64,000 bases of DNA from a virus (Duplodnaviria; Heunggongvirae; Uroviricota; Caudoviricetes): the IMG/VR virus record IMGVR_UViG_2511231131_000001; one strand, written 5' to 3'. Every line of letters starts with the position of its first letter. The first letter of the stretch is position 1. Of this stretch, positions 8,672 to 27,631 are shown piece by piece. Below the pieces are notes generated by a model. That model did no database searches and was not told the origin of the DNA. It saw nothing but the letters and a program-made list of their open reading frames with translations. Position numbers and translations under genes: made by a program.

Positions 8672-11600
8672 TTATGCGTATTGTTGGATGACGGCCAGAA
8701 CGTCCGCCACGTTGTGTTTTGTCTCGATAATCCACCAGTTACCCGGGAAATCGCTGTTCTTCGCCTTCGCTGGCAGCCAGCGAGCGCCGAATTTCGCCTT
8801 GATTGCGTCTTTCGCACGGAAAAGAACGCCTTTCATGCCTGAGGCTTCCTGAAGCCCAAATACCTCGCCAGCGGCGAATTTTGGTGCGTACATCATCTTC
8901 AGGTCGGCGGTGGATACGCGATAATTCAGACCAAGAGACTGAGCTATGCTGGTGGAATCACCCTGTATTGATGATAACTCTTCTTGTTTCTCGTTTCTGG
9001 CGGCAATCTCTTCCTCCGTGATGTTGCCAAGGGCTAGGTTTATCCGATCAGCGTCGGCCTGTTTCTCTTCATCGGTGCGCCCGGCAAGAACCGTGTTAAT
9101 TCTCTGCAATATCTCCACATGATTCTTGCGCATGCTGAGCAATTCCGGCGTAACCTCGTTAAGATCCACCAGCCCAAGGATGGCAAGGTCGGAAAACATT
9201 GATACCAGGTTGTAGGTCATGCGATAGCTGAGTTGACCATAGGCTGATGGCAACTTCACCGCATCCATTTGATAGGCATCCATAAATTTAGAGCCGTCGT
9301 TTACGACATCCGCTATTGCAGGTGTGATTTTCCCTGTGGTGGCGGCCTCCCTGATTGCTGTTACCCACGATTGAGTCAGCGCGGCGACTGCATGATTCAG
9401 ATTGGCTTCCCGTTCTGCTGCGATGCGCGCGCTTGCTGCGTCCATTGCCTGCTTGATCTCGGCTTTATTGCTGTAAATGCCAATGGTGCCAAACTGTGCT
9501 GTGGTGATCTCATAATCTGACCCCCGGAACTCATTGGTACCGAAAATGGCATTGGTGACTTCAAGTTCAGAATCCCCGTTACGAGTAGCCCCCTGGCTTG
9601 TTTTTTCCGGCATTCTGGCGATCGCATCCGCTATTTTCTCCTGAATTGCTTCAGGGGATAGCGTATCTCCGTATGACGCGATTACATCGCCATAATTGGA
9701 GCCAAACAATTCAACCAGGAATGTTTCTGCCGAACGGATCTGGCGGTTATTCCCTTCCGACATCATACCAAGCACCCATTTTGCAATTGACGACTTCAGC
9801 GCGCCGTCACGGCGATCCGGGTAAACCGCATGCTTCAGTGGGTCCGTATAGGTACCAACAAAATCAATGCTATAGCCTGACTCTGTAGTCTGAACGCCGT
9901 ACGAGTCAGTTATTTTGATCATGCCGCGCTGCTGGAAACGGTAGAAATCGTCACAGGAAATGATGTCGTTAATCCCGGCGATGGAGACGCCACCACTGAT
10001 TTTCTGCATAACAGCATCTTCATCGGGAGTTACATCCACCTGTTTATCCAGCGTCTTCACATCCCAGTTACCCGATTTGGTGCCTTTGAAGGTAAAGATG
10101 ATCTCCACGTCTGCGCGCTGGCTGTCGAAGTCCAGCGACTTAATGCGAACGATATCACCGGCACAATCGTAGTATTGGCCTACACGCCATGAGCGATCGC
10201 CGATAACAAGGAACTCACTCGCATGGTTAACCAGGTCAGGATCAACATCCAGAATGCCTTTATTTATTGCATCCTCCACCAGCGGGCGCAGGCGTTTGAT
10301 ATCCGTCGCGGCCTTCTGAGTACGGTTCAATAATTTCTCATAGCGGGAGATGGCTTGAGAGATATTAGCCTTGCGCTGAATGGCGTTTTTCAACGACGCG
10401 CGATACTGTGCTAACAACATACGGTCTGTGTGATGGACGCTCCCCCAGCGGGCCTTCCAGTCTGCGTTATCAGCTGCTTTGGCCATTACCGCCTGTTTGA
10501 ATTTAGCTACCTCGGCGGTGGTCTTTTCAAGTTCCGCTTTGCTTCGCTCTAATTCAGCGGTAAGTACCTCCACATCCTCGCCAGCTGCGTGCTGCGCCTT
10601 GATGTAGTTCTGAAGGTCGATAGTAGCCTGTTCTTTCTGGCGAGCGCGTTGCGCGGCTTTCGCCTTATCCATTTGAACCTGCATCATTGCCAGACGTTCG
10701 CCATCATCCTTAGCGGTATACATCTGCATTTCGATCATATCGTTGGCGTCGGCGTTCTCCATTTCAGACTTATCTGAGCGGAGGATATCGGAGATCCAGC
10801 CTGCTTTACGCTTCAGCGTCTTCAGTCGGTATTCATCGAAAGAACCCTTGCCGCAGTAGTAGTGAACGCGAACGCTTGCACGGTTGGAACCAACTCGGGC
10901 ACCGCGACCGTTACGCTGTGCGATACTGGCTGGTGTCCATGGCAACGTCAGATGATGGATGTCAGTCGTTCCTCGATGCAGGTTGATACCCACCTCTGCC
11001 TTTTTGTTGCAGATGATGATCGGAGTCCGGCCCTCCTGGAAGTCGGCAGCAATCTTTTCCAGCCCACCCAGCGACATTTCATTTTGCTGCGCGATATAGG
11101 CGTCATACAGAGCCATTTGCTCGTTGTATTTCGCTATCTGTGCATCTGTTGGTTCATCCGGTAGCTCTTTCGGCGGTTTAACCGCTTTCAGTTTCTTACC
11201 GGTTTTACCTGCCTCGGCAACCGTCTGAGCATTCAGGATCCCCACCTTTGAAGGTTCAAGGTTAAGAGCATTGCAGATAATGCGCTTGAGCTTCTGGTGT
11301 TGCGTTTTTTCATCGGTGAAGATGATTTGCTTACCTTCCGGGAAAAACTCCTTCAGCGTGGCAATCAGCTTCGCGTATTTGGGCGTAACGGGGTGAGTTA
11401 CGGTCTGTTCGTCAATGCCAAACTTGGCCAGGCGCTTATTCACTTCCTGCTCAAATGCTTCCGGTACCTGCAACTGAATAAACTCGCCCTTATCTATCAG
11501 GGAGTATTGCGATTGCTGCGTGATCGAATCATCACTGTCGTCGTCTTCGCTGGTGGCTTGTTTAGGCAAACTGTCCGCCAGCTGCTGCACCGCATCGGCG

Positions 11601-14600
11601 TACTCCGGCAGGAAACGATAGGTGATCCTGCGATAGTACAGGTCCATGTCAGTACATACGCGGTCCATATCCCTGATTATTGAGAAGATCTGACGGGCTT
11701 TCTCGTGCTCAATCACGCCGTCTTCATTGACCGAGGTCGTTACGCCATTGTTGGCTTTGGCTGCCGCTTCCGCCTGCTGACGCAATTCTTCATACGCCGC
11801 CAGTTGTTCTTCCGTAAGTGGTGCATCCTGCTGGTGTTCGTCCAGTTCCGGGATCTCCACGGTATCCTTAACGTCTTCCGCCGTTTTAAGCGTTGTCCAG
11901 CGATGGAATATGCCGCGCAGCGCATCAAGGTTTTCAAAGCCCACCAGCGCCATTTTTTCTTCAACTTCACCGCTGATTTTCTGTACCGTTTCCAGCCTGG
12001 TCTTGCCGAAGAATTTAACGAAGTCATCAGGACCGTAGATCCCCATCTTCTGCCAGTATTCCTTCGGCAGAACATGAGAAAGCATGTTGTATGCATCGAT
12101 CGGGGTGTTAACGACTGGCGTTGCAGTCAGGAGAACCGGCCCGCGCCCGCCATTCTTTTTCATCAGGTACGCGTTTTTGATTGCCATATCCCGCGCCGAT
12201 TGCGCCACCGCGCTGGTGGGCAGATAGGCCAGTTGTGACGCTTCGCGACCATTTTTATAGCTATTGCGGTAGTTGTGACCTTCGTCGGCGATCACACTAT
12301 CGAAGCCCATATCCTCAAAGTACGGATACTTCTCTGCTTTTTCGGTGCCGGTATCTGAATACTCCGACAATACCCGGCGACGCGCGGCCTCTTTGCGGTG
12401 GGAGTCGGAGTCCATTGCGCTGGCTACGCGCCCGGCAGCAACGAAGTCATAAAGCATATCCTGTGCATGCTCATCTACGGTGTCATCACGTAGCGGAATG
12501 CGGGCGTATTGTTCTTTGGTAAACACGACTGCACGGTAATTTGAGTGCGGGATCGCGTTCATCCGCGCCGTGATAGTGGCTTCATCTGCCAGCTTAAGAG
12601 CATCGCGCATAACTGGAGTGCCATCAGTACCAAGAACAGGTTTACCGTTCTCATTGAGCACCGGCACCTGGCGAATCTGATCGCCATCCATCAGCACATC
12701 AAGACCGACGAACAGGTAGTTACTGAATGCCTCTTCACTCAGGAACTCTTTTGCTTCGTAATACCAGTTTTCCAGCACTGATTTAGGCACTACATACGCA
12801 GTACGGGTGGAACGACCGTTCTCATAGTTGAACGCCTCAAGCGCCAGCGCGGTCGTGGTTTTACCCAGCCCGGTACCGAAGCCCAGGATGCCGCGCCCAT
12901 CTTCGGACAGTCGGCGCACCTCGCTATTCTGGTAATCAAATGGCTGTCGCTTACCGCTTAATCCCTTCAACCCAAGCGGATCGCCAGAGTGTTCATACGG
13001 GATATTGCTATTGAACACATCGTTGTATTTGGCAACCAGCTCATCGTAGCGATCGTGCGTCTTGATCCACTTATTGAACTGGTCCTCAAGCAGTGCCATC
13101 TGCTCGCGGTAGCCGTTCGCCGTCGCGCTATCTTTGCCACCGATACGCGCACCATTGAGATACTTTTCCAGCTGTGCCGGGAACCCGGTCGCGTTTTCAC
13201 CTGATTTACGGTCCCACTCGTAGCGGATCTCGCCTGTTTCTTTATCCTTGCGCTGGACGACACCGTATCGGTGCCCGACGAACAGACCATCACCACCGTG
13301 ATAGGTGTCAGAAACCATTTCGTCGCCTTCCAGCTGCACTGACTGCACATAGCGAAGATCCGGATAGCCGTTTTCCTGCAAAAATTCCAGAATGACGGAA
13401 CGGTCGAACCAACGGCTATTGAGCTTAAAGCGGATATTCTCTGCTGGCGTCTTGATGCGCTTCTCTTCGATCGCTGCCAGCTGATTAAGGACGTTGTTCT
13501 TTACTGGACCGTCGGGGAGTGTGGCAAGGAATTCCTGTTTTGGTGCCACTATCTCGTTAATGTCGCCGCTGGTGGCGCGGGCGAACGGAACAATCCCGCC
13601 ATACGGTGAAACCGCAATGCCAGGGGTGCTGGCCAATAAATTAAGCAACTCGTCATCACTGGCTGGCAGTTCGCCGGTAAACGCAAGGCGGAAATCATCG
13701 AGCTGGATTGGATCGCGAGTGAGATCACTGTAGAGATAACGCAGGGTGTCCTGATAGCTGGTGGAGTCATAACTGGCGCTGGAATCATGCGTAACCAGTT
13801 TTCCTGTCAGCTCGTCAGAAATAGTGCCATCCAGCTTAATTGCACCACGGAAAGCAAACCAGGCGCGCGCACCGCTCCCCGATAATTTCGCTATCGGACC
13901 GCGACCGGGGTTACCAAAACGGTCAATCTCTGCCTGCAAACGGGATACCAGAGAAAGGCGCTGCTGTTCGATTTGTTCAGCACTATGCCCGGCGGCCTTC
14001 ATGTCCTGATATTCAATTAACATCCGGCCAATCATCGCCCCGCGATACAAGCGTTCACGGTATTTTTCAGGCTGGCTGTTAATCCAGTCCACCAGCTGCA
14101 CCATATCGTCGCTGATTGATGTGGTGTATTTATCGCGGACATTTGCCATCTGGGTAAATGTCATACCGAGACGGCCTTCTGTTGTAGTCAGGTTACGCTG
14201 AAGAGCCTCCCAGCTGTCCGCGCCATAACTGGCAACATCAATCTTCAGCTCCTTCCCTGCATCAGATTCAATCCAGCGACCACCAGCATATTTTTGCCAT
14301 ACGCCATTAATCAGGCGCATTTCCCCTTCATCAACAACGTCTGCGGTCGGTGACGGTTCAGCCATATTGAGCAAAGACCAGTCGATACGACTTTCGAAAC
14401 GATGAATCAGCTTCGCTTTAAGAGCCTGGTTATCAATCTGCCCGTCGGCACGAACCTCAATACGCCCCTGGAAGCCCTTTTCCTGGGTACCATGAACAAA
14501 CCGGCGGCCATCCTTTTCAAACCACTTGCCAGAAATAAACGTTGGCCAAAGCACATTTGCCGATTCAAGAGTGCTTTCATCCACCAGGGGGATTTTCTCA

Positions 14601-15439
14601 GCCATCTCTGCCGGATGTTTGCGCATCAGCACCACATCAACGACTGTACTGGTCCCGTTTGCGTCAAAAGTACCGGTAGGCAAGCGGTGAGCGCCAAGAA
14701 ATTCAGCTTTCCGTGATAGGCGCAGGCGTAACCGCTTCATGTTTGAACCTGAAACAATGGACGGCGGCACAATCACACACATGAATCCGCCAGGCTTTAT
14801 CTTGTCCAGCATGCGGAGCATGAAGTAAGAACCCATGTCCGTTTCTTCTGCGTAAGGCTTATCGATGTTGCGTGTGTTATCACGACCGCCGAACGGAACG
14901 TTACCCACAACATGGTCGAATGAATCGTTAGGCGTGCTTACAGCCAGCTGTTCGAACGGGGAAATCTGTACGCTGTCTTCCGGGTGTAACAACTGGTTTA
15001 TACGACCGGAAACACTGCTGATCTCAGTCGCGGTCATCACCGTACCAACCGGCTTTGTCTCATTAAAAACGCCGGTTCCCGCCGATGGTTCCAGAGTGTT
15101 ACCTACGTCCGCGCCGTAGAGCTTCATGATCTCCCAGACACCTTCAGCGATCGGCTTTGGTGTGTAATATTCGGAGACGGACCCGCCAATGCCGCCTTCA
15201 CCGGTGTACCCAGCCAGGATCTGGCGCTGTTCATCTGTCAGTGTCGCGCCGTCCACCAGCGAATTAAGCAAATCTATCGCCTTCTGATTCGCCTCCCGGC
15301 GCAGTCGGTCATAGCTTTTGCCTTCCACCTTTTCCACGCCGTATTTAATCGGCGCTCGGTGAGATGTTATTGCCCTAATGTATTTTAATATTTCGCTGAC
15401 ACTTGAACAGCGAAACACCCCCATAGATAGCTTGTTCAT
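8672..15439 (-). CDS. darB: DarB antirestriction protein (methyltransferase plus helicase domains)
   Basis: 2255-aa ORF, the size recalled for P1 DarB; contains NVPFGG (N6-adenine MTase-like motif), Walker A GTGLGKTT and VIADEGHNYRN (DExH box). Confidence 0.85.
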   Translation of the reverse strand: MNKLSMGVFRCSSVSEILKYIRAITSHRAPIKYGVEKVEGKSYDRLRREANQKAIDLLNSLVDGATLTDEQRQILAGYTGEGGIGGSVSEYYTPKPIAEGVWEIMKLYGADVGNTLEPSAGTGVFNETKPVGTVMTATEISSVSGRINQLLHPEDSVQISPFEQLAVSTPNDSFDHVVGNVPFGGRDNTRNIDKPYAEETDMGSYFMLRMLDKIKPGGFMCVIVPPSIVSGSNMKRLRLRLSRKAEFLGAHRLPTGTFDANGTSTVVDVVLMRKHPAEMAEKIPLVDESTLESANVLWPTFISGKWFEKDGRRFVHGTQEKGFQGRIEVRADGQIDNQALKAKLIHRFESRIDWSLLNMAEPSPTADVVDEGEMRLINGVWQKYAGGRWIESDAGKELKIDVASYGADSWEALQRNLTTTEGRLGMTFTQMANVRDKYTTSISDDMVQLVDWINSQPEKYRERLYRGAMIGRMLIEYQDMKAAGHSAEQIEQQRLSLVSRLQAEIDRFGNPGRGPIAKLSGSGARAWFAFRGAIKLDGTISDELTGKLVTHDSSASYDSTSYQDTLRYLYSDLTRDPIQLDDFRLAFTGELPASDDELLNLLASTPGIAVSPYGGIVPFARATSGDINEIVAPKQEFLATLPDGPVKNNVLNQLAAIEEKRIKTPAENIRFKLNSRWFDRSVILEFLQENGYPDLRYVQSVQLEGDEMVSDTYHGGDGLFVGHRYGVVQRKDKETGEIRYEWDRKSGENATGFPAQLEKYLNGARIGGKDSATANGYREQMALLEDQFNKWIKTHDRYDELVAKYNDVFNSNIPYEHSGDPLGLKGLSGKRQPFDYQNSEVRRLSEDGRGILGFGTGLGKTTTALALEAFNYENGRSTRTAYVVPKSVLENWYYEAKEFLSEEAFSNYLFVGLDVLMDGDQIRQVPVLNENGKPVLGTDGTPVMRDALKLADEATITARMNAIPHSNYRAVVFTKEQYARIPLRDDTVDEHAQDMLYDFVAAGRVASAMDSDSHRKEAARRRVLSEYSDTGTEKAEKYPYFEDMGFDSVIADEGHNYRNSYKNGREASQLAYLPTSAVAQSARDMAIKNAYLMKKNGGRGPVLLTATPVVNTPIDAYNMLSHVLPKEYWQKMGIYGPDDFVKFFGKTRLETVQKISGEVEEKMALVGFENLDALRGIFHRWTTLKTAEDVKDTVEIPELDEHQQDAPLTEEQLAAYEELRQQAEAAAKANNGVTTSVNEDGVIEHEKARQIFSIIRDMDRVCTDMDLYYRRITYRFLPEYADAVQQLADSLPKQATSEDDDSDDSITQQSQYSLIDKGEFIQLQVPEAFEQEVNKRLAKFGIDEQTVTHPVTPKYAKLIATLKEFFPEGKQIIFTDEKTQHQKLKRIICNALNLEPSKVGILNAQTVAEAGKTGKKLKAVKPPKELPDEPTDAQIAKYNEQMALYDAYIAQQNEMSLGGLEKIAADFQEGRTPIIICNKKAEVGINLHRGTTDIHHLTLPWTPASIAQRNGRGARVGSNRASVRVHYYCGKGSFDEYRLKTLKRKAGWISDILRSDKSEMENADANDMIEMQMYTAKDDGERLAMMQVQMDKAKAAQRARQKEQATIDLQNYIKAQHAAGEDVEVLTAELERSKAELEKTTAEVAKFKQAVMAKAADNADWKARWGSVHHTDRMLLAQYRASLKNAIQRKANISQAISRYEKLLNRTQKAATDIKRLRPLVEDAINKGILDVDPDLVNHASEFLVIGDRSWRVGQYYDCAGDIVRIKSLDFDSQRADVEIIFTFKGTKSGNWDVKTLDKQVDVTPDEDAVMQKISGGVSIAGINDIISCDDFYRFQQRGMIKITDSYGVQTTESGYSIDFVGTYTDPLKHAVYPDRRDGALKSSIAKWVLGMMSEGNNRQIRSAETFLVELFGSNYGDVIASYGDTLSPEAIQEKIADAIARMPEKTSQGATRNGDSELEVTNAIFGTNEFRGSDYEITTAQFGTIGIYSNKAEIKQAMDAASARIAAEREANLNHAVAALTQSWVTAIREAATTGKITPAIADVVNDGSKFMDAYQMDAVKLPSAYGQLSYRMTYNLVSMFSDLAILGLVDLNEVTPELLSMRKNHVEILQRINTVLAGRTDEEKQADADRINLALGNITEEEIAARNEKQEELSSIQGDSTSIAQSLGLNYRVSTADLKMMYAPKFAAGEVFGLQEASGMKGVLFRAKDAIKAKFGARWLPAKAKNSDFPGNWWIIETKHNVADVLAVIQQYA

Positions 15440-19085: not shown

Positions 19086-19218
19086 AAAGACCTCATAAGC
19101 GAATTTTTTACGCTCCAGGACAAACACCCATTCACAGCCAATACCGACTGACTCGATCCCTTTAGAAGGCACAGGATAATGCAAATCACTTGTTAGCTAC
19201 GTTTCAAAGATATACATT

Positions 19219-19235
19219 ATTGCTCTAATTAATTT
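19219..19235 (+). promoter_or_regulatory. C1 operator-like site (ATTGCTCTAATTAATTT, 16/17) upstream of ssb
   Basis: Match to the P1 C1 operator consensus ATTGCTCTAATAAATTT. Confidence 0.55.
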
Positions 19236-19254
19236 ATTTTATTAGGTAAGATAA

Positions 19255-19743
19255 GTGGCACAACGCGGTGTAAACAAAGTCATCCTGATTGGTACCCTGG
19301 GGCAAGACCCGGAGATCAGGTATATACCAAATGGCGGAGCGGTCGGAAGACTCAGCATCGCAACGAATGAATCATGGCGCGACAAGCAAACGGGCCAACA
19401 GAAAGAGCAAACAGAATGGCATAAAGTCGTTTTGTTCGGAAAACTTGCTGAAATTGCGAGTGAGTATTTACGAAAAGGTTCTCAGGTCTACATCGAAGGG
19501 AAACTTAAAACCCGTAAGTGGACAGATGACGCCGGTGTAGAACGTTACACGACGGAAATTATCGTCAGCCAGGGCGGCACCATGCAAATGATCGGCGCTC
19601 GCCGTGACGATTCACAGTCCTCAAATGGCTGGGGGCAATCAAACCAACCTCAAAACCACCAGCAATACAGTGGTGGCGGTAAACCTCAGAGCAACGCCAA
19701 TAACGAACCTCCAATGGACTTTGACGACGATATTCCGTTTTGA
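19255..19743 (+). CDS. ssb: Single-stranded DNA-binding protein
   Basis: 162 aa; [23 protein letters not shown]... with acidic C-terminal tail DFDDDIPF, closely resembles E. coli SSB; GTG start. Confidence 0.92.
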
Positions 19744-19940
19744 ATGTGTAAAAAACGACTGAAAGAAAAGCGGTGGTCCAGACGCCGACAAAAGCACGAA
19801 CTCGCAAACAAACGCCAAAGTTGGCAATGGCACGCGCTTTTCACGAAAAGAACACCCCGAGATATTGCGTTCGCTGGTGGGAAAACATTCCTGACCCACC
19901 TGAAGGCGCAATACATCAGGTTTTAAGCAGAGGAAAGACT

Positions 19941-20618
19941 ATGAATAACATGACAACGAAAGAGCTTTTGACGGCACTTCCAAAATACAAAAGCCATAAA
20001 ACAGTTCGCGCCTCAAAAATCAAAGATATCGAAATTATCGCCCTAATGGATGTGGTCCTTTTTTGCAACATCGAAGTCGTTGAGCCAGAAGGGGTAAAAG
20101 TCCATGTTGATAAAATATTTTTGCAAAAACACCGACCAGAAATTGGCGGATATCTGGTCGCTTATGAGGACGGATCTCTGTCCTATTCACCAGAAAAAAC
20201 ATTTGAAGAAGGCTTTAGTCGGACTAACGACTTCTTCGAAAATGGGGTATCGCTCAGCATTGAAGGTCACAATGGGGTGACATTCATTACAGCCAGGGAC
20301 GTAACTATTTCTGCTGGCGGTATCGCTACTCTACAAGAAGAAATCGACCTTGAAGCAGCCGACTTTTCTGACGCGCTGATGTGGCTGAAGGATGGCAAGA
20401 AAGTTGCCCGACGCGGGTGGAACGGCGAAAACCAATTCTGCTGGCTGGTTCCTGAAGGACAGTACCCGGCACGAATGGAAGCCATTAAGGGATATTTCCC
20501 CGGCGACCTCGTTCCGTATGGTGCTTATTTCGCCTTAAAAAATGCACAAGGTGTAGTTGTTCCGTGGGTTCCTTCTGTAGGCGACTTACTGGCATGTGAC
20601 TGGTTTGTAGTGGAGTGA
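19941..20618 (+). CDS. Protein with C-terminal DUF2829-like (Tad2-like) domain; at the position of P1 isaA
   Basis: ATG 19941 with RBS AGAGGAAAG; C-terminus LKDGKKVARRGWNGENQFCWLVPEG...VVPWVPSVGDLLACDWFVVE resembles DUF2829. Confidence 0.5.
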   Translation: MNNMTTKELLTALPKYKSHKTVRASKIKDIEIIALMDVVLFCNIEVVEPEGVKVHVDKIFLQKHRPEIGGYLVAYEDGSLSYSPEKTFEEGFSRTNDFFENGVSLSIEGHNGVTFITARDVTISAGGIATLQEEIDLEAADFSDALMWLKDGKKVARRGWNGENQFCWLVPEGQYPARMEAIKGYFPGDLVPYGAYFALKNAQGVVVPWVPSVGDLLACDWFVVE

Positions 20619-20624
20619 TTTAAC

Positions 20625-21407
20625 GTGGAAAATACTAAAGCAATTCAATACCGCCTGCGTAATGGTCAGAGTGTCGAAGTGACCATCAATAATGATGGTG
20701 TGCCTGGCGAAAAGGTTTCGATCTCTGATCTGGCTATCGAAAAAACCATCATGTGCCACCTTGGCTTTACTGAAGAAGTGAGCAAAAAGCATGGTGTAGC
20801 AATCTGGAGCGCAATGGATACTGGTATGCGCAGATTCATTACTGCTCGTACCCCAGGGATGACCATGATGGACCTCATGCAGATTGCGCCGCTGTTTGAA
20901 TGTGAGCCTTTAGATGTATTCAGCAATCCAGCTATCTGCCAGCAGCTATATGGTGAGATGAAACTCGCGGTTACCCCCATTGTGCTGCATGAAGGATCGC
21001 TTGCTGGCGTGTGGAAAGTGGAGCGTATTTCAAGCTACATGCCTTTCCATGTCAACGGCGTAATCACTGGTGAAAATCAACCTGTTTCCGTTATAAAGTC
21101 AGACCTCAAGCGCGCAATTCTTGAAGCAAGTTGTCGAGTTGTCGGCCTGGGCAAACAGTCTTATGTTTCCTTCCCGGCTGGCCCTGAAGGCCCGGCAGAA
21201 ATTCTGATTATGGATGCCGATCTGCTCTGGCAAATACAGTTTCTGATTGGCAAAAGCATCATCCGCGCTGAAGAACTCGATCAGTACATTACCTGCACGA
21301 TGACGGATGAAGTCAAAAGTGTGGCTATAGCCAATGCCCGGAACCTATGTCGTGCTGCATTAACAGAACTGCAAGAAAACACCACGGAAGAAGTGGAAAG
21401 CGATTAA
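20625..21407 (+). CDS. Hypothetical protein
   Basis: 260-aa ORF, GTG start, followed by a bidirectional terminator. Confidence 0.5.
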   Translation: MENTKAIQYRLRNGQSVEVTINNDGVPGEKVSISDLAIEKTIMCHLGFTEEVSKKHGVAIWSAMDTGMRRFITARTPGMTMMDLMQIAPLFECEPLDVFSNPAICQQLYGEMKLAVTPIVLHEGSLAGVWKVERISSYMPFHVNGVITGENQPVSVIKSDLKRAILEASCRVVGLGKQSYVSFPAGPEGPAEILIMDADLLWQIQFLIGKSIIRAEELDQYITCTMTDEVKSVAIANARNLCRAALTELQENTTEEVESD

Positions 21408-21411
21408 AAAA

Positions 21412-21431
21412 ATCCCGCCGACTGGCGGGAT
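21412..21431. terminator. Bidirectional Rho-independent terminator (ATCCCGCC-gact-GGCGGGAT) between convergent genes
   Basis: 8-bp stem flanked by an A-run upstream and T-rich sequence downstream. Confidence 0.7.
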
Positions 21432-21435
21432 TTCT

Positions 21436-21747
21436 TCAATATACGATCTGGTCTACATGATCACCAAAATCATCGTCGTCGTCGTCCTCATCGCCACCAT
21501 CTACTGCTGGCCAATCAACAAACCAGCCAGCGTAAAGATGCAGCGTTCGGAGAACATCACTTGCGGGAGCATCAAGGGTGTTAACGAATCCCATATAGCT
21601 ATTGGGATTTGCCCCAGCTATGGCTTCAGCGATCATGTCCTCGGTAATGTCACCGGAGATAATGCTTAAACGCCCGGAAACTTCTTCATTATCATCAAAT
21701 TCGATAATGGCATCTCCACCTAATGGCGCTGCGATTTTAATCTGCAT
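21436..21747 (-). CDS. Acidic small protein, last gene of the darA operon (hxr position in P1)
   Basis: 103-aa ORF ending in an acidic stretch (DGGDEDDDDDDFGDH); start overlaps the ddrB stop. Confidence 0.45.
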   Translation of the reverse strand: MQIKIAAPLGGDAIIEFDDNEEVSGRLSIISGDITEDMIAEAIAGANPNSYMGFVNTLDAPASDVLRTLHLYAGWFVDWPAVDGGDEDDDDDDFGDHVDQIVY

Positions 21748-24724
21748 TATTTAGCTCCTTTGCCACACCTAATAACAGTTCCAGCAATCCGTCACCATTC
21801 ATCAGTGATGCGGCAGCGGCCTCTTTGTCATGATACAACTGAAGAGCCATAGAGAATACTTCCGTTGCTGACGTTTTGGAAATAGTCGGTGATTTCTGCC
21901 GAATTTTCCCGGTGTTACTTACTGAGGCTGGCGGGTATACCTTCGCCATATAAATATTACTCAATCGAGATCTGAAGCACCATTCAGGCTTGCCACGCCC
22001 ACCGATATTGACGAAAGATGGCTTATCCCCTTCAACATTGGCCTTCAGGAATGACCGGGCTTTCTCTAACAAACCAGGGTTACTGTACTCAAGATGATGA
22101 CCCAGCTCGTGCCACAGTGCACTTGCATTTTCATCGTTCAAATTGACAGCAACAACACCATTTAGATTTGCATATGCCCTTCCCTGGTGGTGAACTACCT
22201 TTGATAAGGTCGATATTTTCCCGCCGGTCAGGCGATAAATATCAGCAAGTTCCTTGCGCAGGTCTATCCCACCATTCTGTCCAGCGCGGGCTTCTTCCAC
22301 TTCTTCTGTGATAAAAGAGTCAGCCCACTCAAGAGCTTTTTCTTCAGATACGGATGAGTTTGCGATCGCACTGTTCATGGCAGATAACACTTTCTCGTGG
22401 ACCGAACCCATACTTCGCTGATTCATTTGCCAGCGTGTCTGCGGGTTATATGAGAATCGCTTAAGTAGTTGGTCAAGCTGCTCAAGTTCTTCTTCACTGA
22501 CATACTTTTTAGCCTCACCAATAATGCCAGGGAGAATATTGCCGTTAGGATTAAACGCTCGCGAAAGGAAGAGTTTCAGCGCCCCCATGCCCTCCGATGC
22601 TTCAATATCACCAATAACCCGGTTAACAATGGCCGCACTCTTCGGATTAGCATCCGCCAAAGCTCTGGCTACGATTTGCAGGGACGATACGACCTCACGC
22701 TGCATATCAGTCCTGATCTCATCAATAAACTCTGGCGTTATGCCGTGCTCTTTAAGGATATCCCGGCCTTCCGCCGTTACCCCATCGATATCACCGACAT
22801 GTTTATTAACACGACTTTGCAATGCCTTAAATGCCTTCAGAATTCCACGGGCATCATCCGCTTTACTAACGGCCTTCCTGAATGCTGGCAAGAAGTCTGA
22901 GTTAACCTCATTTTGTTGATCGGCCCACTGAATGGAGGCTTCTTTCATCTCGTCCAGAGTCAGATCACCCAACGCGGTATGGTCTGTGAATATGAGCGAC
23001 AACCTCTGAACCATTTCTGCCAATGGTGATGCCGAATGCGCCGCGCTAAGGAATGCTTTCACCCTGGTTGGGCGAATGGAAAACCAGTCAATAGCTGGTG
23101 GCATATCTCCGTTTTTTATCGCCTGCGCTATCTCGTCAAAGCCATCTCGCCCAAGGGAAGATGCGTGATTTAACAAGCCGCGAAGTAACGAATTGCTGAT
23201 ACCGAATAATCGGCACCATTTTTTCACGTCGGCAACAGGCATTCGAACAAAATGCGCAAGCACTTGAACAAGCTGTTCATCCTGGGGATCTGCACGGGAA
23301 AGCAGCCTGATCAGATGAATAATATCTTTGATGCCGGATGCCCGATGTAATAGCAAGCTGGTATATGGAGCAACACCGTTGTAACTACCGCCGGAAACGG
23401 ACTCGAAAAGACCGCCGGATATCCCTTGCATGCCTTCGTTTTCCAGTTCCTGAGACACCTGGCGAAGGATATCCTGTAACGACACATCGCCGCCGCCAAA
23501 CATATCCCCCAGCGCCTGGCCCTGGTGCTGTAACTCATCATTGATACGTTGAGCCATCAACTTAAAGGCGGTGGCCATACGCTTCGCGCTACGGTTATTC
23601 GCGACGATGAACAACGCGAGTGCTTTCACTTCCGGGGCCGTTTCGCTGAACATATCCCCCTGAGCAATAACATCGGTAATATGCTGGCCTGACTCCTTCG
23701 ATTGCCTTACCAGGTCTACCGCATCTTTCAATGCCTCCAGCGCCTTTTTATCGAGGCTATCCGCTGTCTCAATGCCATCAACAATAGTTGTCACAGCCTG
23801 CTTGTGCGCTTCTCCTGATAAAGCCTGCATCTGGACAAAATCATTGGCTGCCGCATTAAGCGCCGTCAGAACATTACGCATGTCCGGATCAGGTTCTTCT
23901 GCAACCATCCTTACCAGGCGCGCATCCTTATATGCCTTGGCAAAGATCGCGTTTTGTATACGGTCTACAAGTTGCCGTGTTGGTCGCCCATCTTCAGTTA
24001 CAAGGCCAGCCGCCTGTGTGGCACCAACTTGCGTCATAAATCCGCGAATAAACGCGTCATTACTGCGGCTAAGCAGATCTCCGCTTTCTGACGGGTTAAA
24101 CAACGCCATCATCGCCGGTGTTATGCTGTCGGCATCAACAAAAGCCTTTTCACTGGCTGCCATTTCCTGAAGATCAGAAATATTTGAGTCCTTGGCAAAC
24201 TGAACGCGATCAACCTTAGTTAACCGGCGGCGCACCAGTACCGGAGCCGTCATTGATTCAACCTTTTCAGGCCGTATGCCGAATTCGGTCGCATGTTCAA
24301 TCAGGTACTCCCGATACCGATCCGCATTACCGTCCTGATAGGCTTTAATGATCCCCATGGTCCGCCCATTACCTGACTCAACGGCATTGTCCTCACCAAT
24401 TATTGGCGCGCCATGGCTGGATAAACCGGAATCGGTAAGCTGGGCAGGACGCAAATCCTTGGATATCTGGTTGACCTGAAGAAGGCTGGATGCGCGGGTC
24501 CGGTCGCGCGGCTGAAGTTCCTGGGGATAGTCTGGATTAATTTTCCCATCCAGAGTATTGGATACCAAAAGAACTGAGGCATCGACGATATCAAACGCTG
24601 TTTTTACCTCATCTCCCTTCGCTGTCACCACATACGAAACCCGCCCATAATCGGGCAGGTTCTTTAGCAGCTCGATCAGCGTTTCTATGCTGGTGGCCAT
24701 TACCACCTGATCGCTTAAGCTCAT
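21737..24724 (-). CDS. ddrB: DdrB-like large internal head protein of the Dar antirestriction system
   Basis: 995-aa ORF downstream of ddrA and darA in the same operon; by synteny and size. Confidence 0.55.
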   Translation of the reverse strand: MSLSDQVVMATSIETLIELLKNLPDYGRVSYVVTAKGDEVKTAFDIVDASVLLVSNTLDGKINPDYPQELQPRDRTRASSLLQVNQISKDLRPAQLTDSGLSSHGAPIIGEDNAVESGNGRTMGIIKAYQDGNADRYREYLIEHATEFGIRPEKVESMTAPVLVRRRLTKVDRVQFAKDSNISDLQEMAASEKAFVDADSITPAMMALFNPSESGDLLSRSNDAFIRGFMTQVGATQAAGLVTEDGRPTRQLVDRIQNAIFAKAYKDARLVRMVAEEPDPDMRNVLTALNAAANDFVQMQALSGEAHKQAVTTIVDGIETADSLDKKALEALKDAVDLVRQSKESGQHITDVIAQGDMFSETAPEVKALALFIVANNRSAKRMATAFKLMAQRINDELQHQGQALGDMFGGGDVSLQDILRQVSQELENEGMQGISGGLFESVSGGSYNGVAPYTSLLLHRASGIKDIIHLIRLLSRADPQDEQLVQVLAHFVRMPVADVKKWCRLFGISNSLLRGLLNHASSLGRDGFDEIAQAIKNGDMPPAIDWFSIRPTRVKAFLSAAHSASPLAEMVQRLSLIFTDHTALGDLTLDEMKEASIQWADQQNEVNSDFLPAFRKAVSKADDARGILKAFKALQSRVNKHVGDIDGVTAEGRDILKEHGITPEFIDEIRTDMQREVVSSLQIVARALADANPKSAAIVNRVIGDIEASEGMGALKLFLSRAFNPNGNILPGIIGEAKKYVSEEELEQLDQLLKRFSYNPQTRWQMNQRSMGSVHEKVLSAMNSAIANSSVSEEKALEWADSFITEEVEEARAGQNGGIDLRKELADIYRLTGGKISTLSKVVHHQGRAYANLNGVVAVNLNDENASALWHELGHHLEYSNPGLLEKARSFLKANVEGDKPSFVNIGGRGKPEWCFRSRLSNIYMAKVYPPASVSNTGKIRQKSPTISKTSATEVFSMALQLYHDKEAAAASLMNGDGLLELLLGVAKELNNAD

Positions 24725-24736
24725 CCCTGTTACGCC

Positions 24737-25102
24737 TTATGCTGCCTCTTTAATGTTGGCGGCTATCCATGCCGCCGTGTGCTGTTTAACCTGGTCCAGG
24801 TCGATGTATGTGCCAACATATTGACTCAAATCCTGCAAGGTACCGATAAATGCATCGGTGCTCTGATCGACGAATTTATCAGCCAGGAAATCAGCAACCA
24901 GTTTTGGCACACCATCATGTTCCGAAGGTTGTTTTTCCTCGCCACTACCACCGCCGGACGCGCCGTACCCCATCTGTTGCATGATCTGGTCAATTTCATC
25001 GCTGATATCCAGCAACTCCATGCCACTCGCGGTCGCCGCTTTGGACATCAGAGCATCCAACTTATCGCTGAGATCCATTAACTCAATAGCTGATAGTGTC
25101 AT
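24737..25102 (-). CDS. ddrA: DdrA-like protein
   Basis: 121-aa ORF overlapping the darA stop by 4 nt. Confidence 0.5.
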   Translation of the reverse strand: MTLSAIELMDLSDKLDALMSKAATASGMELLDISDEIDQIMQQMGYGASGGGSGEEKQPSEHDGVPKLVADFLADKFVDQSTDAFIGTLQDLSQYVGTYIDLDQVKQHTAAWIAANIKEAA

Positions 25103-27018
25103 GCCGCTACCCCCGCTTTCTGGATTGCTACCAACAGATCAGCCAGGTGGCGAGCTGCGCCGTTAACCAGCTCTTCGTTTTCCTCAAAACGTCCGGCAGC
25201 CTGAAGGGCTGCAATCGCTTCCCGGACATTGCCCCGGGCGTTACGGATCTCCGCCATGTCAGTGCTTTGTATATCCATCACGTTATTGAGATATTCAATG
25301 GCTTTATTAGCCTCTGCATCTGCTTCGCTAACCGTTTCATCAGGCTGTGCCGGGGCCGGTTCTGGCTGAGTAATCTCACCGACTTCGGCCTGCAATGCAT
25401 TGATCATGCTCTGCACCATTTTCTCGGTGCCAGCGCCCCCAGGAAACGCAATATTGGGGAAAGTTTTTTGAAACTGAGTTTTCAGCATTACGCGGAACTC
25501 GTCTGGTGAGCTGGTGGCCAGCTCCAGAGCTTTTTGTGCATATTTGCCAAACGGACCATTAGTAAGTGTCTTCGCCAGGAAGTCGAAAGAATCCTCGCGA
25601 GGCAATAACTTCAGGTCGTACTCACTCATTTGCTGATCAGAAAGCGGGGTATCGTAAGTAGCAATGCCGTAGCGTGCATATTCATAATACGGGTCACCTT
25701 CATCAGGGCGCGGCAGAATTGCTTTGTTACCTTCAGGTATTGCGCCAGGGGCCGCCGGACGCATTTGCAGGGCATATCGATATGCACCTACAGAGACTTC
25801 TGGTTCAGGCGAAGAGCTACCGGTATCCTCCGCTGGTTCAGGTTCGACGTTTTCCGGTTTATGTTCTTCTGGTTGGACCAGGTATTCCGATACATTACCC
25901 GCTTTATAGGCTTTAAACAGCTTGCCGATCGCATCTGCCATGTCCACACCCTGTATGGATTTAGCCTTGATCATGTATACGCTGCCATCCGGATCGGTTA
26001 ACTGGATATACCCTTCGCCGCCCCCAATGAATTGCTTCATTGATGCACCATTACTGAGCGTCACTTCCCCGTCCATATGCATACGATTTTTGATACTGGC
26101 AAGGCGATCCGTCAGCGCGCGAGAGTGCCCACCAGTCATCCCCGCTGGAGCAATGGTATCGCGCCCACCAGTGCGATTGAGCTGATCAATCTCCGTCTGC
26201 AAACGCTCATTCTCTTCATAAAGAGAATCCGCTTCCGATGCAACAGCGTTAATTTTCTGCTCCAGATCTGCCTTCTGCCCTTCTACCGCTGCCACCTGAT
26301 CCGCGAGGTCGCTCATGGCATCCTCTTTCTGGTCACTGTCAGCCTGTAGTTGGGTTATTTCATCAACAAGGGCTTTTTTCTTCTTCTGCGCACGCTGGAA
26401 TTTTGCCGAGTTTTTCTCTGCAAGGTTGGCAAGTTTCATGGTGACCTGCGCCAGCGTCATATCACGTCCACTCATCGGAGCAACGGTGTGAGTAACGTCT
26501 TTTTTATTCAGTAAGAACTGGAAAGCAACCAGCGTATCGCTATTGGTGATCCGGTTTTCCGCTGTCGGGCTATGAAACAGAATGCTGATAGTCTGACCAT
26601 CACTGAGCGGAATAATGGCTGGCAAGACCGGCAGCCCGTTAACGTTACGTGCCCGGCCAATTTCAGCGCCGCCGATCGCGCGCGCGCCGCTCTGGGCCAC
26701 ATCCCCCGTTTTATCACTCCCCGCAGAGATTCCGGTACCATTCAGCTTCTGGTTCAATGCCCGGACAAATGCCTGCATGGTCCGGTGTAACTGCAAACGA
26801 GTAGAACTAATCGCCTCCAGTAAATCCGTAGCACACCAGTGGATCGGCGTGTCATAGAAGAACGTAGCCTCGATTTCCTCCAGGGTGTTGGATTCCGTCA
26901 TCAGATAGCGGTCCTCACCGGCCATTAATGCGCGATATTCATCATCAGTCACTGGCGGGGGAAGCACGTCAAGCCCAGGCTTGATCGTCACCCCTTTATT
27001 GATATTGAACTGTTCCAT
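25099..27018 (-). CDS. darA: DarA antirestriction / head protein
   Basis: 639-aa ORF, the size recalled for P1 DarA, within the lyd-hdf-darA-ddr operon. Confidence 0.7.
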   Translation of the reverse strand: MEQFNINKGVTIKPGLDVLPPPVTDDEYRALMAGEDRYLMTESNTLEEIEATFFYDTPIHWCATDLLEAISSTRLQLHRTMQAFVRALNQKLNGTGISAGSDKTGDVAQSGARAIGGAEIGRARNVNGLPVLPAIIPLSDGQTISILFHSPTAENRITNSDTLVAFQFLLNKKDVTHTVAPMSGRDMTLAQVTMKLANLAEKNSAKFQRAQKKKKALVDEITQLQADSDQKEDAMSDLADQVAAVEGQKADLEQKINAVASEADSLYEENERLQTEIDQLNRTGGRDTIAPAGMTGGHSRALTDRLASIKNRMHMDGEVTLSNGASMKQFIGGGEGYIQLTDPDGSVYMIKAKSIQGVDMADAIGKLFKAYKAGNVSEYLVQPEEHKPENVEPEPAEDTGSSSPEPEVSVGAYRYALQMRPAAPGAIPEGNKAILPRPDEGDPYYEYARYGIATYDTPLSDQQMSEYDLKLLPREDSFDFLAKTLTNGPFGKYAQKALELATSSPDEFRVMLKTQFQKTFPNIAFPGGAGTEKMVQSMINALQAEVGEITQPEPAPAQPDETVSEADAEANKAIEYLNNVMDIQSTDMAEIRNARGNVREAIAALQAAGRFEENEELVNGAARHLADLLVAIQKAGVAA

Positions 27019-27019
27019 G

Positions 27020-27631
27020 TTAATTTCCTGCTTTCAGTTGCTTAAGACGGCGTTTGAGTTCGCCATTTCGGGCCTTTTCGTTATTGAGTCGGCCTGTCTC
27101 CTTATCCAGCTTCGCCCGCAAATCAGTGATCTGCTGTTGATTGAAAGACACCGAGTTCTGCGCTGATTTATAAGCGGCAACCACCTGAGCATTCCGCTGT
27201 TTTGCCTCTTGCAGGCGCTGAAAGTTGGATTTTACTGCCGGTTTCTTGTCTACCGGATTGGCAACACGTTTCGCTTTGGCGATCAGTGATTTCTGGAATT
27301 TTGCGGAGTTTTTGCGGGCCGCTTGCCCCATGACGGTACCAAGCGTCTTGATATCCGGCGACTGAGCGTTAGGAATAGCTTTTCCATTCAGCCTCACAGA
27401 CGATATATCGCCAGTATCGTTTACCTGTATGGCAAGAATTTGTCCGTCGTTAAGAACCAGCTTTGCGGTTTTAACTTTAACGCCATCTTTCGTTGTTGCG
27501 CGGTTGCTGGAGTCAACCTCAATTACCGTAACACCGGTTTTATTGATCGCCGCGATAAGGGATTTCAGCCCCTTTTCATTAACCTGGTCAAAATCGACCG
27601 TTGCATACTTATTTTTCGTCATCTGACACAT
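27020..27631 (-). CDS. hdf: Hdf-like head morphogenesis protein
   Basis: 203-aa basic protein immediately upstream of darA. Confidence 0.5.
   Translation of the reverse strand: MCQMTKNKYATVDFDQVNEKGLKSLIAAINKTGVTVIEVDSSNRATTKDGVKVKTAKLVLNDGQILAIQVNDTGDISSVRLNGKAIPNAQSPDIKTLGTVMGQAARKNSAKFQKSLIAKAKRVANPVDKKPAVKSNFQRLQEAKQRNAQVVAAYKSAQNSVSFNQQQITDLRAKLDKETGRLNNEKARNGELKRRLKQLKAGN

Follow-up and report, generated by a model that had tools for sequence, protein, structure and literature searches.

A Tad2-family domain joined to a Dec-like OB-fold domain in a P1-type phage-plasmid: a candidate sponge for host immune signals

The 64,000-nucleotide stretch of DNA analysed here (the window) can be assigned by sequence to a P1/SJ46-like phage-plasmid, and the gene that follows ssb in it encodes a 225-amino-acid protein whose C-terminal domain is, judged by sequence, modelled fold and pocket residues, a bona fide member of the Tad2 family. 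The first-pass annotation of this DNA, which had drawn attention to the C-terminal domain, missed that the protein is built of three parts: an N-terminal OB fold resembling the decoration protein Dec of phage L, a poorly modelled linker, and the Tad2 domain. It is reasonably likely, from sequence and structural models, that the gene product acts as a cytoplasmic, early-expressed sponge that counters host defence signalling. The Tad2 domain would form a homotetramer, as the solved Tad2 proteins do, and an immune signal derived from a nucleotide would be captured and held in pockets between its protomers. The host effector would thereby stay inactive both on entry of the P1-like element into a new cell and on its induction. 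As a separate module, the Dec-like OB domain probably contributes either a further activity against host defences or a function in assembly or targeting.

Clinical isolates of Escherichia coli, Shigella and Salmonella often carry P1-type phage-plasmids, which are also used as transduction tools. A working sponge would help to explain how these elements become established in hosts that carry TIR-based or cyclase-based abortive-infection systems. The earlier description of the DNA as a phage-plasmid is borne out by the identity of this region, at 99.7-99.9%, with both Salmonella phage SJ46 and a large number of non-mobilisable plasmids of about 95 kb from E. coli and Salmonella. The presence of a Tad2-type gene in these elements was already known, because NCBI names the protein "DUF2829 domain-containing protein", one UniRef relative is called "Thoeris anti-defense Tad2 family protein", and a 2025 preprint lists DefenseFinder matches to "Tad2 AcrIIA7" for 56% of the P1-type elements and 93% of the D6-type ones (10.1101/2025.09.12.675607). 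The Tad2-type annotation is not new; what is less ordinary is the uncharacterised N-terminal domain, which is fused elsewhere to unrelated sponges. The combination of a Dec-like OB domain with Tad2 is known to specialists, yet unstudied.

The Tad2 domain and its ligand pocket

The domain occupies amino acids 136-225 (20346-20618 on the + strand, stop codon included), the C-terminal 40% of the protein. Its assignment to DUF2829 in the first-pass annotation is upheld by a profile match far beyond chance: amino acids 141-224 align to positions 2-73 of the 73-position profile of Pfam family PF11195 ("Tad2-like", formerly DUF2829) and score 80.2 bits (E = 1.6e-22), where the cut-off is 25. No model in NCBIfam or in PADLOC, which covers defence and not anti-defence, matched the 225-amino-acid protein. 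Among solved structures the closest relative by sequence is ModTad2 of a Myroides odoratus prophage (PDB 8V3E, 9EIB), with 45% identity and E = 6e-20 (6e-21 for the domain alone). It is followed by HgmTad2/AcrIIA7 (PDB 8KBI-M; E = 4e-10), the Tad2 protein of phage SPO1 (gp34.65; PDB 8SME/F/G; E = 7e-9 to 1e-9, 36% identity) and SptTad2. An AlphaFold model built with 38 homologues is confident for amino acids 10-97 and 141-225 and poor for amino acids 98-135 and for a loop at 180-191; its C-terminal part shows the fold expected of Tad2, in which an N-terminal helix leads into an antiparallel sheet whose loops contain short helices. Structure comparison agrees with the profile match: the best 24 Foldseek matches in the PDB are all Tad2 structures, and a fold search of BFVD returned chiefly Tad2-domain proteins. 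Characterised Tad2 proteins are single domains of about 90-170 amino acids (ModTad2, compared here by sequence, has 89), whereas the window protein carries its Tad2 domain within 225 amino acids and three parts. The short single-domain form is typical of Tad2 and not strictly defining, since active fusions exist.

SPO1 Tad2 holds 1''-3' gcADPR, the signal of type I Thoeris, through W25, N26, W73 and D79, with T78, I63 and T65 in contact with the adenine (10.1101/2023.05.01.538930); the equivalent residues of HgmTad2 are W21, N22, G23, W87, S90, T92 and D93 (10.1101/2023.11.15.567273). In sequence alignments the four SPO1 residues correspond to W160, N161, W209 and D215 of the window protein, and G23 and S90 of HgmTad2 to G162 and S212. 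W160, W209 and D215, together with R157, are invariant in the 38 homologues, and N161 is replaced by lysine in one allele group. The fold, the family and the W/N/W/D contacts are common to the window protein and SPO1 Tad2, but the latter is a single-domain protein, more distant than ModTad2, and its adenine contacts are changed here (T78 to G214, I63 to L199, T65 to N201). The region between strands beta2 and beta3 has nearly the length found in ModTad2, with a one-residue gap, and lacks the insertion of 35-41 residues that forms the cyclic-dinucleotide pocket of HgmTad2.

The ligand is less readily predicted than the family, as Tad2 specificities span 3'cADPR, His-ADPR, N7-cADPR, cUMP/cCMP and cyclic dinucleotides. 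[quoted passage not shown] ModTad2 is a sponge for both His-ADPR (type II Thoeris) and cUMP/cCMP (Pycsar), and its inhibition of Pycsar, the E. coli system included, proceeds through a second pocket (10.1101/2025.08.24.671296). His-ADPR is the first-guess ligand of the window protein, given its identity to ModTad2, the ModTad2-like length of the beta2-beta3 region and the activity of ModTad2 against type II Thoeris; that the protein is a sponge for His-ADPR specifically is a tentative proposal from sequence, to be held with somewhat more doubt than belief. Possible alternative ligands are 3'cADPR, N7-cADPR, or the Pycsar signals cUMP and cCMP in a second pocket. Furthermore, when 84 sponge homologues were tested against seven systems, 19 had no effect on any of them. 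The label of candidate anti-Thoeris factor is therefore fair for the C-terminal domain, in which the pocket is kept and ModTad2 is the closest relative, but Thoeris is the likeliest target and not the only possible one, because Tad2 specificities vary and about a quarter of the tested homologues were inactive.

The ssb-isaA transcription unit

The open reading frame at 19941-20618 (+ strand) is real, and the coordinates given for it in the first-pass annotation are right; the sequence strings quoted there lie at amino acids 149-173 and 206-225. Translation is predicted to start at ATG 19941, on the 3' side of a Shine-Dalgarno sequence (GAGGA, 19930-19934), and ends at TGA 20616-20618. The GenBank record of SJ46 uses a longer in-frame version of 281 amino acids that starts at GTG 19773. 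This version was set aside in favour of ATG 19941, because the NCBI version of 225 amino acids is 100% identical to the window protein and the N-termini of diverse homologues begin there; distant homologues, stand-alone ones included, start a few residues before a conserved L-P-x-Y-K motif.

The gene lies downstream of ssb, as had been proposed; ssb (19255-19743, +) encodes a single-stranded DNA-binding protein (NCBIfam NF006533, E = 2.2e-81) and is the upstream gene of the unit. An operator for the C1 repressor (Ossb/Op21; 19219-19235, +) overlaps the ssb promoters, and ATTGCTCTAATTAATTT with its flanks is identical to the annotated operator and the P1ssb and P2ssb promoters of P1. On the strength of this identity, the operator is likely to be the control point of a transcription unit made up of ssb, the OB-Tad2 gene and isaA. 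The 197-nt spacer between ssb and the Tad2 gene (19744-19940, +) consists of the DNA that stands ahead of isaA in P1; it had no Rfam match, and its predicted folding was not notably better than that of shuffled sequences (z = -1.8). No terminator-like sites were found on the + strand from ssb to the end of isaA. A sigma-70 promoter scan of 19100-21800 returned nothing and is of little information, as it also missed the ssb promoters annotated in P1. Early expression of the Tad2 gene, upon infection or induction, is likely because the cassette lies downstream of ssb and of a C1 operator identical to that of P1, with no + strand terminator between them.

The isaA homologue (20625-21407, +) starts at GTG 20625, preceded by a GGAG sequence (20612-20615) within the end of the Tad2 gene; the two genes are probably coupled in translation. 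Its product of 260 amino acids is 95% identical to IsaA of P1. IsaA had no match in Pfam, NCBIfam, PADLOC or the sequences of the PDB, and its AlphaFold model (mean pLDDT 48.7) was too poor for a fold search. Homologues of IsaA were found only in P1-type and D6-type elements, in which isaA is always directly 3' of the Tad2 gene (for the D6 type, D6 and a D6-like contig were examined). In D6-type elements the Tad2 gene and the isaA homologue adjoin cre, and the Tad2 part either follows a separate dUTPase gene or is fused to a dUTPase.

Alignment of the window to canonical P1 by blastn identified a cassette of 684 bp (19945-20628, +) that is present in the window and not in P1, which has 6 bp in its place. 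The DNA on the ssb side (19200-19944) is collinear with P1 and 99.2% identical, and the DNA on the other side (20629-21407) is collinear with isaA of P1. By this comparison the cassette was gained or lost exactly 3' of the isaA ATG, and the collinearity of both flanks places the Tad2 gene directly behind the ribosome-binding site and ATG of isaA. At 21407-21438 the window lacks the IS1 and isaB found in canonical P1, so that isaA is directly followed by hxr (21436-21747, - strand) and then by ddrB (21737-24724, -). Rfam models gave nothing above threshold in 19100-21800; the sub-threshold matches, all at 21402-21535 on the - strand, were to the Thr, Trp and rnk leaders and scored 20-23 bits, short of the gathering scores (41-55). 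They lie between isaA and hxr, which are convergent, and are most likely explained by a hairpin resembling a terminator rather than by true membership of these families.

The Dec-like OB domain and its fusion partners

The N-terminal domain (amino acids 1-97; 19941-20231, +) belongs to a large family of phage domains for which Pfam has no model and which PHROGs lists as unknown. A profile of amino acids 1-136 from 19 homologues matched Dec of phage L (PDB 6E3C) with E = 6.7e-8, profile positions 13-129 aligning to Dec residues 14-130 so as to span both the OB fold and the stalk-forming stretch; the OB part alone as a profile still matched Dec (E = 8e-4). The linker (amino acids 98-135; 20232-20345, +) is beta-rich, resembles a tail-fibre repeat or the Dec stalk, and aligns to Dec residues of about 90-130. 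The monomer model gives it a pLDDT below 50, and it varies among homologues, being of a beta type, of a helical type, or absent. In Dec the corresponding stretch forms a trimeric beta-helix on capsids and is likewise disordered in the Dec monomer (PMC6449081). Lockin was considered as the identity of the OB domain and rejected, as it has been described as a hexameric cog absent from sequenced phage genomes, and no such structure was among the PDB fold matches. A look through the literature turned up no paper connecting the domain with sponges. One homologue (P0023), in which a tail-fibre repeat precedes the protein on a 10-kb contig, looks like a rearrangement and was left out of the evidence. 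Proteins with an extra domain that matched PF21825 or resembled 6E3C were removed by Hadary et al. from their Tad2 set (10.1101/2025.08.24.671296). The activity of the single-domain Tad2 proteins that have been tested is not simply transferable to the window protein, because its first 135 amino acids are Dec-like and such proteins were excluded from that survey.

A profile made from 17 stand-alone or N-terminal sequences found at least 5,309 representatives of clusters at 50% identity with E <= 1e-3, of which 3,664 had E <= 1e-10 (examples of the family are P0124-P0302, and L003 3986-4582). Many of these proteins have 85-100 amino acids and end where the domain ends. Genes for the stand-alone forms have early, nin-type or nucleotide-metabolism genes as neighbours, or else follow the lysis cassette. 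Fusion partners were tallied by Pfam in the 72 longer proteins among the best 150 family members: Sequestin was found six times, Tad2 four times, Acb4 twice, an Acb2/Tad1 hairpin once, DUF551 twice and DUF2158 once, so that sponge families account for 13 of the 16 recognised matches in this sample. Another OB protein carries a RecBCD inhibitor of the T7 gp5.9 type. PF21825 is Sequestin, a 3'cADPR sponge that was itself discovered through its fusions to Tad2 and Acb4 (10.1101/2025.07.12.664507). At one and the same locus of Lastavirus phages, OB-Tad2 is encoded by SopranoGao and a fusion of OB, a middle domain and Sequestin by SJM3; to judge from these sequences, the phages exchange the C-terminal sponge and keep the OB domain. 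A second small domain, for which Pfam gave nothing at E <= 0.01, turns up repeatedly either between the OB and Tad2 or Sequestin modules or ahead of them (P0057, P0066, P0068, P0073, P0077, P0110, and L006 2495-3370, which is also an example of the OB family), and has the motif P-G-D-W-I/V...G...Y/F-x-C-K-P-x-I-F-x-x-T-Y-E.

These associations raise the question of whether the OB domain is itself an inhibitor. It may bind a ligand or otherwise act against a defence system, for instance as a new kind of sponge, in which case the window protein would block two signals or systems. [quoted passage not shown] Those fusions resemble the window protein in joining Tad2 to a second small phage module, but the second module is a known sponge there and an uncharacterised OB domain here. 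On the other hand, the OB domain has no known ligand or pocket, its sole characterised relative binds capsids, the same partners could equally share a domain for scaffolding, solubility or targeting, the Tad2 part does without it in D6-type elements, and the tally extends to the best 150 family members. A second inhibitory activity in the OB domain is thus possible and rather doubtful. Similarly, it is an attractive suggestion, and a rather doubtful one on the present comparison, that the domain represents a very large phage anti-defence family, either a new sponge or an adaptor joined to a RecBCD inhibitor and to no fewer than four families of sponge.

If that suggestion were true, the P1-type protein would be a two-headed inhibitor whose N-terminal domain, linker and Tad2 domain are shuffled independently against the defences of E. 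coli and Salmonella. The logic of fusion to known sponges that led to Sequestin now points to the Dec-like OB family. As a sponge or a general carrier of anti-defence functions, the OB domain would add a major family to the counter-defence repertoire of phages, and would hint at the origin of Dec or at the source from which it was recruited.

A role in the virion is improbable. The homology to Dec over both OB fold and stalk-like stretch, and the disorder of the linker in the monomer model as in the Dec monomer, are what would be expected of a Dec-like trimer that decorates the P1-type capsid and displays the DUF2829 domain for stabilisation or adhesion, with no capture of signals. However, Dec is a late virion protein, a capsid-binding trimer without Tad2, whereas the window gene is located in a C1-controlled ssb unit and not in a late or structural operon. 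Its relatives are found among early, nin-type or nucleotide-metabolism genes, the linker of many homologues is helical or missing, the partners of the OB domain are cytoplasmic anti-defence modules, canonical P1 builds virions without the Tad2 gene, and the ligand contacts W160, W209 and D215 are invariant. Most members of the Dec-like OB family are, unlike Dec, proteins of 90 amino acids encoded in non-structural regions.

That the protein is an anti-CRISPR factor of the AcrIIA7 type, inhibiting Cas9, is scarcely credible; no native type II-A Cas9 system is known to us in E. coli or Salmonella. Attempts by Li et al. to reproduce an inhibition of Cas9, in vitro or in vivo, failed for AcrIIA7/HgmTad2 and for other Tad2 homologues (10.1101/2023.11.15.567273). 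Sequestration of an immune signal by the Tad2 domain is the preferred reading; a point against it is that a trimeric stalk of the Dec type could clash in symmetry with a Tad2 tetramer.

Distribution, alleles and accessory genes

A tblastn search located the protein in 282 plasmid records, with coverage of >=80% in 235, and almost all of these plasmids are non-mobilisable and of about 90-100 kb. Phage records were matched 137 times, with only six at >=80% coverage. The window allele is the commonest one (453 member sequences), and the genes of relatives are located in early or accessory regions, not in structural modules. P1-type, D6-type and related elements also carry Tad2-Sequestin, OB-Tad2-Sequestin and dUTPase-Tad2 versions. 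Within the P1 type, several types of N-terminal domain and of linker and three types of Tad2 domain occur in many combinations, a mosaic pattern that, as read from the sequences, fits recombination under diversifying selection. The prevalence in plasmids (the 235 records) and the free reassortment of modules are a signature of an arms race.

The variable loop and pocket positions 161, 201 and 214 set the three Tad2 types apart. In one of them, among the homologues of window positions 19941-20615, WKG replaces WNG and aspartate replaces both N201 and G214. The existence of WNG and WKG types suggests from sequence comparison that phage-plasmids that are otherwise nearly identical may differ in ligand specificity.

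The first-pass annotation had set the candidate anti-Thoeris factor beside a SIR2-like module of the phage-plasmid's own. A protein of 274 amino acids with a SIR2_2 domain is indeed encoded at 6608-7429 (+; PF13289, E = 2.5e-23; PADLOC candidate system PDC-S25, E = 6.6e-26) and is similar to the SIR2 part of ThsA (E = 4e-18), but it has no SLOG domain and no adjoining TIR gene; the flanking reading frames (5799-6551 and 7441-7911) had no TIR or other PADLOC match. The SIR2 block adjoins ref/mat; of 705 matching plasmids, only 63 carry it at >=80% coverage. By its sequence matches it is probably an accessory defence gene, and nothing marks it as a Thoeris module open to interference by the Tad2 protein.

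The window also encodes DarA (DarA_N and DarA_C domains; 25099-27018, -) and a smaller DarA_N protein (27020-27631, -). An open reading frame of 2,255 amino acids (8672-15439, -) lies in what we take, from the gene order of P1, to be the position of darB. The DarA genes and this putative darB position place the classical anti-restriction system of P1 near the Tad2 cassette. At the start of the window, a cre-type recombinase gene (436-1467) is accompanied by nearby accessory genes for an AraC-type regulator with a DJ-1/PfpI domain and a protein of the metallo-beta-lactamase fold (3334-4323 and 4339-5115, both on the - strand).
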